Assembly (NCBI GenBank): GCA_964556185.1 | Contig: CAZKVI010000001.1 | Coordinates: 7,165 to 71,164 of the forward strand | Reading direction: 5' to 3' | DNA length: 64,000 nt | DNA from: an uncultured Methanosarcinales archaeon | GTDB lineage: Archaea > Nanobdellota > Nanobdellia > Woesearchaeales > DSVV01 | Shown: in pieces, positions 58,257 to 60,311 of the stretch | Layout: each line of letters starts with the position of its first letter | Position numbering within the stretch: the first letter of the stretch is position 1 | Made by a program: the position numbers and the translations under genes | Notes under the pieces: model-generated | What the model was told of the DNA's origin: nothing | Databases searched by the model: none | The model's input: only the letters and a program-made list of their open reading frames with translations

Positions 58257-59534
58257 GTGATTTATATGGTTTCTAATTTAAAATTAAAAAAATCTGATTG
58301 GCAAAAGATTATTTTAGGAATTAGAAAAAAGTTAAATTTGAGTCAAACTAAATTAGCACGAAAGCTTTGTCTAAGTAGACAAACTATTAGCAGATTTGAA
58401 TCTAAACAAAGAATTCCAAATCATAGTTATCAAAAAAAGATCTTGGATCTTATTAGTAATGAAGATTTAGATATTTGTGAGTTAATAAATGAAGGTACAA
58501 AGTATTCCAAAGAGTACATTAAAAGACAGAAAAACGAGAAACTAGATCTAAAAAGATCAGTTGAATTAGCAGAATTAATAGGAATTATTCTTGGTGATGG
58601 TGAAATAATAAGGGATGGTACAATGAGAATCTCTTTTGATCCTAAAAAAGATAAAAATTTCCTTAATAGAAGAGTTATTTTTCTTATAAAACAATTATTA
58701 AACAAGAAAATTACTTATGAAAGCAATAAAAGAATTGCTTTTGGAAATATTGCTTTTGTAAGGTATTTAGAACAAGATTGTGGTTTAAAACCAGGAAGTA
58801 AGTTTGAAAATAATTCACAAATACCTAAGTGGTGTTTTGAAAAACAAGAGTATATTTCAGCTGTTTTAAGAGGATTATTTGATACTGATGGTTATTTTGG
58901 GTATTATGATTTCACTACAGAAATAATGTATGGAAGATTTTCAGATAAATGTACTAATTTAGTTCAAGATATAATAAAAAGCCTTAAGATACTGGGGTTG
59001 AATTCCAGTGTAAAACATACTAAAGATGGAAGATTTAAAATCAGAATATGTAAAAGAACAGATGTTTTGACTTTTTTTGAGAAAATTGGAACCTCAAATA
59101 TAAAACACATTGTTCGGTTCTTATTATGGAGATTTAATAGGTATGAAGCCAAGATTGAATTAGAAGGATTAGCAAACTTAATATTGAAAACAAGGTCCCT
59201 TTACCCAAATATAGAAGCTATACAACTGCCTTTCTTCTGGAATTTGGATAATATATGCTTCAAATCTTATGTACTAGAAGATTTGAATGAAATAGAAGGA
59301 GCACAAATTAAAAATATTTATAAATGGGACATAGTTTCTCGAGACTTAATTAAATATATGGGTAACAATAAGTTAGCAAATATATTTAATATAAATAACA
59401 GAAGTGTTAGAAAATGGCGTGAAGGGAGAAGAATTCCTTCTGACATAAATGCTTCGAAATTGATCAAATTATTAAAAGAGCATAATTTGACTCCAAGTGA
59501 TTATATAATGAAAAATGGCAAAGGAAACAATTGA
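58257..59534 (+). CDS. LAGLIDADG homing-endonuclease-like protein flanked by N- and C-terminal HTH domains.
   Basis: Two LAGLIDADG motifs ~97 aa apart (LIGIILGDGEI and LRGLFDTDGYF). N-terminal XRE-type HTH (LNLSQTKLARKLCLSRQTISRFE) and a C-terminal HTH-like segment (NRSVRKWREGRRIPS). Confidence 0.7.
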   Translation: MIYMVSNLKLKKSDWQKIILGIRKKLNLSQTKLARKLCLSRQTISRFESKQRIPNHSYQKKILDLISNEDLDICELINEGTKYSKEYIKRQKNEKLDLKRSVELAELIGIILGDGEIIRDGTMRISFDPKKDKNFLNRRVIFLIKQLLNKKITYESNKRIAFGNIAFVRYLEQDCGLKPGSKFENNSQIPKWCFEKQEYISAVLRGLFDTDGYFGYYDFTTEIMYGRFSDKCTNLVQDIIKSLKILGLNSSVKHTKDGRFKIRICKRTDVLTFFEKIGTSNIKHIVRFLLWRFNRYEAKIELEGLANLILKTRSLYPNIEAIQLPFFWNLDNICFKSYVLEDLNEIEGAQIKNIYKWDIVSRDLIKYMGNNKLANIFNINNRSVRKWREGRRIPSDINASKLIKLLKEHNLTPSDYIMKNGKGNN

Positions 59535-60311
59535 TGCTCTTATTGAAGGAGGCAAAGCAACTGCAGCTCCGCCCCTTGGGCCAGCATTTTAGGTCTCAAA
59601 ACCTATGCTAGAGGACCTGTAGGGGTTAACATCGGCGAAGTTGTAGCTGAAATCAATAAGAGAACTGCTGATTTTAAAGGTATGAAAGTACCTGTTAAGG
59701 TTATAGTAGATACAGATACAAAACAGTTTGAAATTGAAGTAGGTACTCCACCAGCTGCTCAACTTATTAAAACAGAAGCTAAAATTCAAAAAGCAGCATC
59801 TAATCCATTAACAGACAAAGTAGCAGATCTAAAGATCGAGCAAATTATTAAAATATCTAAAATGAAGGAATCTTCTTTATTAGGAAAAGATAATTTCCAA
59901 AGAGTAAAAGAAATTTGTGGAACATGTCAAAGTATGGGTGTTATGGTTGAAGGTAAACCAGCAAATGAAACTATTGCAGACATTAACAAAGGTTCTTTTA
60001 AAGAAAAGATTGAGTCTGGTAAGACTGAATTAAGTGCAGATGAACTTAAAGAAATGGAAGAAGAAAAGAAGAGACTACAAGAAGAACTTGAAAAGAAACG
60101 AACAGAATTCGAAGCAACTGGTAAACAAATTATGAAAGAAATGGAAGGCAAAGAATCTAAAGCAATCAGAGCAAAGATGGTAGAAGAAGGTCTTCCACAA
60201 CAAATTGTTGATCAATTAATGCCAACTGAAAAAGAAGGCGAAGGCGCTGCAAAAGGTGGAGAAGCTAAAGAAGGCGCACCTGCTGAAGCTAATGGCGATA
60301 AGAAAGAATAA
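59515..60311 (+). CDS. rpl11: Ribosomal protein uL11 (L11), with its reading frame interrupted by a 23-nt element near 59589-59612. It carries a ~95-aa charged C-terminal extension.
   Basis: Frame 1 reads [25 protein letters not shown] then TAG. Frame 0 continues (LGLKTYAR)[53 protein letters not shown]... Both halves match the L11 N-domain consensus ([21 protein letters not shown]...). The 5' end overlaps the LAGLIDADG ORF by 20 nt. Confidence 0.75.
59589..59611 (+). other. 23-nt frame-disrupting intervening element inside rpl11. Candidates are a BHB/BHL-type mini-intron, a translational bypass element or an indel artefact.
   Basis: Removing ttaggtctcaaaacctatgctag (or the 1-nt-shifted equivalent) restores PPLGPA(L/F)GPVGVNI. 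The UAG stop lies at the base of a potential hairpin (59590-59597 pairing with 59611-59619). Confidence 0.45.

Follow-up and report, generated by a model that had tools for sequence, protein, structure and literature searches.

The DNA considered here, called the window throughout, is a stretch of 64 kb (32% GC) of contig CAZKVI010000001.1, whose best matches are to Candidatus Woesearchaeota (DPANN). It contains rpl11, the gene for ribosomal protein L11, which is broken by an element of 23 nucleotides and is preceded by a gene for a LAGLIDADG protein. All the features of this locus lie on the forward strand. The rpl11 frame opens with ATG at 59515 and halts at TAG 59590-59592, just after PPLGPAF has been encoded. 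The remainder of L11 begins at 59613, in a frame shifted by 2, and ends with the stop codon 60309-60311. The original prediction described a gene split by UAG at 59590 and continued in another frame, and reading-frame analysis confirms this. It also held that removing 23 nt would restore the consensus, and this too is so: excision of 59589-59611 places the consensus Leu at the junction and yields an L11 of 257 amino acids, while excision of 59590-59612 gives Phe instead (PAFGP). Excision of 59587-59609 gives PARGP, and the other deletions of 23 nt lead to stops.

The boundaries used below follow from the rule for cleavage of bulge-helix-bulge (BHB) motifs (PMC2738675). By that rule exon 1 occupies 59515-59588 and ends with TT, the first two nucleotides of the Leu codon. 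The element itself, TTAGGTCTCAAAACCTATGCTAG, occupies 59589-59611. Exon 2 occupies 59612-60311, supplying the third nucleotide of the Leu codon, then GPVGVNIG and all that follows, including a tail rich in Lys and Glu. The in-frame UAG is nucleotides 2-4 of the element, and therefore an unspliced mRNA would yield a peptide of only 25 amino acids. Public gene calls contain a C-terminal fragment of 209 amino acids (P0003) and, in two assemblies, the 25-aa peptide of exon 1, and nothing more of the protein.

The spliced protein matches both Pfam L11 domains (PF03946 at 1.3e-23 and PF00298 at 6.5e-17). A tblastn search with it finds, as its sole matches within the window, the high-scoring segment pairs of the two exons, and no second copy of rpl11 was found in the 64 kb. 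The gene is under purifying selection, as judged by the ratio of nonsynonymous to synonymous substitution rates (dN/dS) of about 0.04 against the closest relative, L005 (codons 33-150). Both exons are intact, with no other lesions. L005 (91% amino acid identity in L11, 98.7% nucleotide identity in the upstream gene) and L006 (85% amino acid identity) lack exactly these 23 nt and read without interruption, CCT GCT TTA GGA CC; the intronless DNA of the L005 type is CCTGCTTTAGGACC.

The Lys/Glu-rich tail is a feature of woesearchaeotal L11 at large. It is a C-terminal extension of about 100 amino acids, probably a coiled coil, encoded in the window by 59940-60308 and present in all top L11 matches. 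With it the protein comes to 235-278 amino acids, against about 160 for a typical archaeal L11.

The fold of the interruption and its homologues

Archaeal splicing endonuclease acts on a substrate defined as a helix-bulge-helix-bulge-helix (PMC10485636). The minimum free energy (MFE) fold of 59565-59635, at -23.5 kcal/mol, is a canonical example of it, with the 3-4-3 geometry of two bulges of three nucleotides on either side of a helix of four base pairs. The outer helix is made of exon sequence. Its 5' strand, 59571-59582, consists of codons for Pro-Pro-Leu-Gly-Pro and pairs with 59613-59626, the codons for Gly-Pro-Val-Gly-Val, over 12 bp with two single-nucleotide bulges. The central helix pairs AGCA at 59583-59586 (the third nucleotide of a Pro codon and the Ala codon) with UGCU at 59606-59609, within the element. 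Between outer and inner parts lie the 5' bulge, UUU at 59587-59589, and the 3' bulge, AGA at 59610-59612, with predicted cleavage between 59588 and 59589 in the first and between 59611 and 59612 in the second. The inner helix, within 59590-59605, pairs UAGGU (59590-59594) with ACCUA (59601-59605), 5 bp closed by a loop of 6 nt at 59595-59600. The BHB geometry that had been suggested is thus found, in place of the stem first drawn for the element (59590-59597 with 59611-59619), which is not the favoured pairing.

The rule just mentioned places cleavage between the second and third residues of each bulge, and it has been used and confirmed for cbf5 (PMC2738675). Applied here it removes precisely 59589-59611, the sole deletion that recreates the consensus Leu codon, as UU/A. 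A strict BHB may be defined by four Watson-Crick pairs in the central helix, at least 5 bp in the inner helix and at least 2 bp in the outer. With an intron of 23 nt, the two strands of the window together (2 x 64 kb) contain one such motif, and it is at the rpl11 site; strict motifs arise at a rate of 7.8e-6 per position, strand and length. Loose BHB-like motifs number 2117 on the two strands over 110 intron lengths.

A phylogenetic view comes from the rpl11 loci of 66 species representatives, collected by means of the spliced L11. All but one (65/66) are uninterrupted at this site. The remaining locus, L060 (Woesearchaeota B72_G16), bears an insert of 16 nt at the same site and in the same phase. 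Others came to light beside homologues of the upstream gene, again at the same site and phase: 16 nt in L074/L075 and 18 nt, with three in-frame stops, in L079. Comparison of orthologues, one of the checks proposed at the outset, thus finds close relatives without the insert and three other lineages with homologous inserts of 16, 16 and 18 nt. A metagenome scan for TTTTAG...AGAGGNCC...GTNAAYATHGG returned only the source contig of L060; the collection evidently lacks even the window's own contigs, so absence from it says little.

The BHB parse holds in L060, L074 and L079, with one central pair being U.G or an A.G mismatch, and in all three the cleavage rule again gives a functional junction. 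The 5' bulge is UUU in all four intron alleles and the 3' bulge is AGA in three and AAA in the fourth. The four base pairs of the central helix are AGCA/UGCU in the window, CGCU/GGCG in L060 and L074, and CGCA/GGCG with one A.G mismatch in L079. Over the four alleles the proposed register has 90.7% of its cells paired, and sliding it brings the figure down to 52% or less; 4 of the 15 pairs change on both sides. The covariation score, 0.222 versus 0.105, is reached by 8 of 500 shuffles, which with four sequences only amounts to modest support. The third positions of two Gly codons pair as C-G, A-U and U-A in three of the intron alleles, and are complementary in 14 of 74 intronless genes. Outer-helix stability shows a modest enrichment, the intron alleles ranking 6, 11, 3 and 30 against 74 intronless alleles. 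The GC-rich codons of the window were considered as compensatory changes and then dropped, as some intronless relatives (e.g. L059) have them too. An in-frame UAG or UAA occupies nucleotides 2-4 of the insert in four of four alleles (59590-59592 in the window, 3076-3078 in L060, 1523-1525 in L074 and 4319-4321 in L079). This shared stop could be selected, or could be a simple by-product of the UAG/CUA inner stem.

I propose that the 23-nt element is an mRNA mini-intron; on its fold, its junction and its homologues, splicing by EndA and RtcB is very probable. The exon codons on either side of the element would pair in the pre-mRNA to form the outer helix, and AGCA and UGCU the central helix. 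EndA would then cut between 59588 and 59589 and between 59611 and 59612, and RtcB would join the exons, creating the Leu codon UU/A and a normal L11. Among the explanations offered in the original prediction, it is this one, a mini-intron cut by tRNA splicing endonuclease as in cbf5, that is favoured by the fold, by the junction rule and by homologous inserts with compensatory changes.

Some considerations weigh on the other side. The case for splicing is drawn from sequence, fold, junction and homologues. The local fold is unremarkable relative to shuffled sequence (z = -1.26), since a high GC content and palindromy are inherent in the coding sequence: LGP...LGP gives GGNCC...GGNCC, which makes rpl11 self-complementary here. 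The same codons may be the reason that the site tolerates a BHB at all. The three shorter introns have outer helices of 5-6 bp and inner stems of a weak 2-4 bp, a relaxed form resembling bulge-helix-loop, and in L079 there is the A.G mismatch in the central helix; they would therefore need an endonuclease of relaxed specificity. DPANN EndA is generally of the alpha4 type with an L3 loop, an insertion associated with relaxed specificity (PMC5829648). Genes for EndA and RtcB are not among the open reading frames (ORFs) of the 64-kb window, and their presence in the source genome rests on their universality in archaea. Finally, the exact spliced proteins of the four alleles are not to be found in a collection of 15 billion proteins, a neutral result, the collection being built mostly from DNA assemblies.

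The LAGLIDADG gene and its proposed link to the intron

The most informative context of the intron is one that lay outside the original prediction: the LAGLIDADG gene beside rpl11. It occupies 58266-59534 and encodes 422 amino acids (an alternative GTG start lies at 58257), and its 3' end overlaps the start of rpl11 by 20 nt. The protein has an N-terminal HTH_3 domain (a helix-turn-helix, or HTH; Pfam 3.7e-13), two LAGLIDADG motifs (LAGLIDADG_3, 3.5e-9) and a C-terminal HTH. The catalytic aspartates are kept, LGD111G being nearly invariant and FDTD208G at least 90% conserved among 21 family members. An AlphaFold model, with a predicted local distance difference test score (pLDDT) of 90.8, matches by Foldseek the TliVMA endonuclease, I-Tsp061I (template modelling score, TM, 0.70), PI-SceI, I-DmoI (about 0.65) and I-SceI, with E values from 6e-7 to 1e-3. 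The matches thus include endonucleases of inteins and of archaeal introns, and among the small enzymes I-Tsp061I and I-DmoI score best. The bacterial transcription factor WhiA is matched as well, more weakly (ranks 4, 11 and 12). The ORF is, from these features, a putative free-standing LAGLIDADG homing endonuclease, although its activity is predicted with less confidence than splicing.

The family is a small one of DPANN archaea, with some 50 clusters in a collection of 5.8 billion proteins. Genomic context was fetched for ten distinct members, including one only 34% identical and one from Aenigmarchaeota, and every one of them sits between Spt5/NusG and rpl11, with stop codons from -31 to +27 nt relative to the rpl11 ATG. 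Yet the gene is missing from L005 and L006, from all 66 species representatives and from all 68 other rpl11 loci, within the upstream flank that was fetched. The genomes that bear it fall at no fewer than eight scattered positions on the L11 tree. A scan of viral contigs with the endonuclease family gave only an unrelated LAGLIDADG protein, 27% identical.

Other genes of mobile character occur near rpl11 in some of these loci. In L077/L078 rpl11 is followed, at a distance of about 1 kb, by another LAGLIDADG_3-like gene, of 463 aa (6159-7293); L079 has a small GIY-YIG ORF (1928-2167) and L081 a phage-integrase gene (5181-6224).

What happens to the PPLGPALGP site of L11 when the endonuclease gene lies beside it? 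At the ten loci in question, three have the mini-intron, three have PP(V/I)GSSLGP, two have PPLGPQLGP, one has PPLGPALAPIEWL (LAPIEWL), and a single locus, L081, has the canonical site. The site is therefore altered at 9 of 10 loci with the gene, against 5 of 68 without it (one intron and four variants). Fisher's test gives p = 1e-7 when every kind of alteration is counted and 0.006 when only introns are, values that are indicative only, because the loci were sampled in two ways and are not phylogenetically independent. In two other members of the family, P0124 and P0129, the reading frame continues into exon 1 of rpl11 and terminates after PP(M/L)GPAL; these are probably two more alleles interrupted at the same site, in which the first intron nucleotide, A or G, is followed by a stop.

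Two loci call for separate mention. L085 has the most distant of the endonuclease homologues, and the L11 beside it (3705-4457) has the sequence PPLGPALAPIEWLDLG, which alters the GTPase-centre/thiostrepton loop drastically. At L009 the site is of the PPVGSSLGP type (at about 3055), but the 3 kb of upstream DNA that were fetched contain no endonuclease gene; here the gene may have been lost from a lineage whose site stayed resistant.

The pair formed by the window and L005 is the one in which co-conversion can be examined, other pairs having diverged too far. The upstream gene is 98.7% identical between the two and rpl11 from nt 91 on (91-270) is 93-100% identical, while nt 1-90 of the spliced gene are only 70-77% identical, a region in which L005 and L006 agree. 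The proportion of synonymous differences (pS) is 0.87 over codons 1-32, which is saturation, against 0.27 over codons 33-150 (z = -3.0). From this mosaic of identity it follows that, relative to L005, a single tract has been imported, which runs from 58152 to about 59633 and comprises the endonuclease gene, all of exon 1 and the intron, and some 22 nt of exon 2. Such a tract is the signature that homing with co-conversion would leave.

These observations suggest the following model. The LAGLIDADG enzyme would recognize the conserved DNA encoding PPLGPALGP in rpl11 alleles that lack its gene. The mini-intron would split that target while leaving the protein unchanged, so protecting the host's copy. 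Cut alleles would acquire the endonuclease gene together with exon 1 and the intron as their double-strand breaks were repaired, and other lineages would gain the same protection by the GSS or PQ substitutions. That the mini-intron protects the target of a neighbouring homing endonuclease is, on the comparative evidence, somewhat better than an even bet. The explanation as a whole, a spliced mini-intron joined to a homing endonuclease, is the best that I can offer, and I would give it a probability of roughly 0.8.

The chief alternative grants that the intron is real and spliced but takes the upstream protein to have nothing to do with it, being a domesticated regulator of the rpl11 region that binds DNA in the manner of WhiA, or else a selfish gene that homes into the spacer between Spt5 and rpl11 and has its cut site somewhere else. 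On that view the changes at the PPLGPALGP site would be due to coincidence or to lineage. This is unlikely, and the facts that favour it are largely those that tell against the link. The likeness to WhiA is one of them: in WhiA too an HTH at the C-terminus follows a double LAGLIDADG scaffold, and the structures are significantly similar. L060 has the intron and no endonuclease gene nearby, a state that fits loss of the gene within a homing cycle without proving it, and L081 has the gene next to a canonical site. Alleles in the same state (I16, GSS, PQ) are not more alike than others in the 5' patch (z from -0.9 to +1.4), where a signal is obscured because third codon positions are saturated. 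The insertion site is among the top 13% or so of conserved 22-nt windows in rpl11 and is not the maximum. And both nuclease activity and target site are predictions from the comparison of sequences.

It is hard, nonetheless, to see a conserved regulator in this family. WhiA is not known to have the catalytic acidic residues, while here both metal-binding aspartates are conserved across the family. WhiA is a conserved core gene; the upstream family is sporadic and polymorphic for its insertion, being absent from every one of the 66 species representatives and from the closest relatives of the window. Nor would a protein without connection to rpl11 be expected to have nine of ten neighbouring rpl11 genes altered exactly at a near-invariant motif, or to be physically linked to the intron by an imported tract that ends about 22 nt past it.

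Alternatives to splicing

A different way to make L11 from this gene would be translational recoding: no splicing takes place, and the ribosome either shifts frame or hops, in the manner of T4 gene 60, from the Ala codon GCA at 59584-59586 to GCU at 59607-59609. There is something to be said for it. A matched pair of Ala codons, with the landing in frame, is present in all four alleles, the point of take-off has a stop codon and a hairpin close by, and in the window allele the downstream frame could be reached by a -1 shift. As the original prediction noted, however, a -1 shift would add about eight aberrant residues (the -1 reading inserts LGLKTYAR), and UUU, the codon before the stop, has no matching Phe landing codon. 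The programmed bypass that it listed as a possibility is disfavoured on further grounds. UUU separates the Ala take-off codon from the stop, and the product would be PPLGPA(R/K)GP, with Arg or Lys in place of a Leu that is near-invariant in 78 homologues. The matched GCN codons are an automatic result of the self-complementary GC core of the central helix. Frameshifting fares no better, as it would have to be -1, +1 and 0 in different alleles. The insert lengths leave remainders of 2, 1, 1 and 0 on division by three (window, L060, L074, L079), stops block both usable frames (0 and +1) in L060 and L074, and L079 has its three in-frame stops; therefore only excision works for all four alleles. 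Recoding moreover leaves the 3-4-3 geometry and the covariation of the helices unexplained, and I consider it very improbable.

Just as improbable is that the gene is dead, broken by a small insertion such as the scar of an imprecise repair after endonuclease cleavage, with L11 either unnecessary or made from a second copy. In formal terms the frame is indeed interrupted, the window is only part of a genome in which another copy could lie, and L11 is non-essential in some bacteria. A pseudogene should not, however, combine a dN/dS of about 0.04 with two intact exons and no further lesion, nor should like inserts appear in four divergent lineages with helices kept by compensatory changes, nor should a scar be a strict BHB, for which the chance rate is about 1e-5. 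Archaeal rpl11 is normally single-copy, and this one retains its native Spt5-rpl11 context, with no second copy in the 64 kb.

The last alternative, that the 23 nt were inserted spuriously in sequencing or assembly, the indel also raised at the outset, is an a priori possibility only and has next to no probability: although four contigs might share overlapping read sets, the element is 100% identical in four of them from four samples and two pipelines (JGI 3300009374, JGI 3300009332, ENA ERZ23499057 and ENA ERZ23499040, compared over 1.3-6.6 kb), this site also bears inserts in other species, 16 and 18 nt long and homologous to the element, in assemblies from NCBI, Logan and JGI that are unrelated, and an artefact would not make a perfect BHB with a junction that restores the frame.

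Related systems and the rest of the window

Only two archaeal mRNAs are established as spliced by the tRNA-splicing machinery, cbf5 of some Crenarchaeota and HVO_1309 of Haloferax, although the authors of a review expect more (PMC10485636). The searchable literature, which does not span all journals, contains no BHB intron in rpl11, in ribosomal-protein genes or in a woesearchaeotal mRNA.

The nearest precedent is the intron of cbf5 pre-mRNA, known from Aeropyrum and Sulfolobus (Watanabe 2002; Yokobori 2009; PMC2738675). Like the rpl11 element it is a short BHB-type intron in an archaeal protein-coding gene, with the predicted cut between bulge residues 2 and 3, presence or absence according to lineage, and a host gene that gene callers mis-annotate as split or frameshifted. 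The differences are several. The product of cbf5 is a pseudouridine synthase of Desulfurococcales and Sulfolobales, whereas here it is a ribosomal protein of DPANN Woesearchaeota. The cbf5 motifs are relaxed while that of the window is a strict 3-4-3. The rpl11 intron is the more sporadic (about 1-2% of relatives), comes in lengths of 16, 18 and 23 nt and is linked to a homing-endonuclease gene. And splicing of cbf5 has been proven by experiment, while that of rpl11 is predicted from its sequence. HVO_1309 of Haloferax volcanii is likewise an archaeal mRNA with a BHB that is cut by the tRNA-splicing endonuclease and its flanks rejoined, as judged by cleavage in vitro and by RNA-seq reads of the spliced product (PMC10485636). 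Unlike the rpl11 intron, it has no reported association with a mobile element.

For the association with an endonuclease the precedents are in phage. Collaborative homing has been described for F-CphI and the group I intron of cyanophage psbA, together with intronless homing (PMC6083498), and intronless homing for the Seg and Mob endonucleases of T4 (PMC2790892). As with F-CphI and psbA, a free-standing endonuclease gene lies beside a conserved gene with an intron devoid of an ORF; introns or point variants occupy the expected cut site, where they would block self-cleavage; and the distribution is patchy, with a mosaic resembling co-conversion. There, however, the host is a phage, the intron a self-splicing group I ribozyme and the enzyme of the Endo VII, HNH or GIY-YIG type; here the setting is an archaeal chromosome, the intron an enzyme-spliced BHB element of 16-23 nt and the enzyme a LAGLIDADG protein with HTH domains. 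Cleavage specificity has been shown for F-CphI, while that of the rpl11-linked enzyme is a prediction. Archaeal BHB introns of rRNA and tRNA genes that encode LAGLIDADG proteins (I-DmoI, I-Tsp061I) share both the splicing motif and the endonuclease fold, but in those cases the ORF is inside the intron and the host genes are for rRNA, while here the endonuclease gene is outside.

At rpl11, then, a splicing motif of a known kind turns up in a host gene that is both new and universal, and its coupling to a free-standing endonuclease is of a sort hitherto described only in phages, for group I introns. The case would add a gene for a universal ribosomal protein, in a different superphylum, to the short list of spliced archaeal mRNAs; its motif is of textbook form, and the alleles are four and independent. 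Genes of this kind are truncated by gene callers without any warning, as the 209-aa fragment of the public annotation shows. The linkage provides a concrete and testable reason for a mini-intron to sit in the most conserved loop of L11. It would carry the concepts of collaborative and intronless homing over from the group I introns of phages to the BHB introns of archaea. It is relevant, too, to an old question, that of the way in which the introns of archaea came to be associated with their endonucleases. This family of endonucleases also offers candidates for natural meganucleases with a defined target of the 20-bp class.

One may go a step further and suppose a composite mobile element in DPANN, in which the LAGLIDADG gene upstream of rpl11 and a BHB mini-intron of 16-23 nt, serving as an immunity patch in the enzyme's own target, travel together by co-conversion. 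I regard the chances of this as evenly balanced. If true, it would be the first collaborative homing in Archaea, and the first anywhere with an intron spliced by enzymes rather than by itself. It would also be a living intermediate for the origin of archaeal BHB introns that bear endonucleases, and possibly evidence that mini-introns are born at endonuclease cut sites where the codons on either side can already pair into a helix.

No other split gene was found in the window by a scan for BHB motifs combined with a test of merging ORFs over 90 loose candidates. Three candidates with long flanking ORFs (at 16.7, 19.4 and 35.5 kb) turned out by Pfam to be separate, complete genes. A diphthamide-synthase-like (Dph2-like) ORF at 38313-38981 on the reverse strand, which spans profile positions 82-285 of 302, was entertained as a second split gene and rejected as a short form, the DNA upstream of it being AT-rich and intergenic with stops. 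ARAGORN and Rfam gave no tRNA or RNA family matches in the window.

The records L007-L011, and others entitled "MAG TPA_asm: uncultured Methanosarcinales archaeon", have long-tailed L11 of the woesearchaeotal type that clusters with Woesearchaeota in the L11 tree, so the Methanosarcinales titles of these and like records are probably wrong. Downstream of rpl11, between it and the gene for D-aminoacyl-tRNA deacylase, an ORF of the forward strand (60391-62520, 709 aa) has no Pfam match. L006 lacks a gene at this position, another insertion polymorphism beside rpl11. Elsewhere on the forward strand, the ORF at 4-9828 encodes a giant protein of 3274 amino acids, as is often found in DPANN genomes, in which Pfam detects only HEAT repeats, and that at 25279-26112 encodes a protein with a Bro-N domain, a domain known mainly from viruses and mobile elements.

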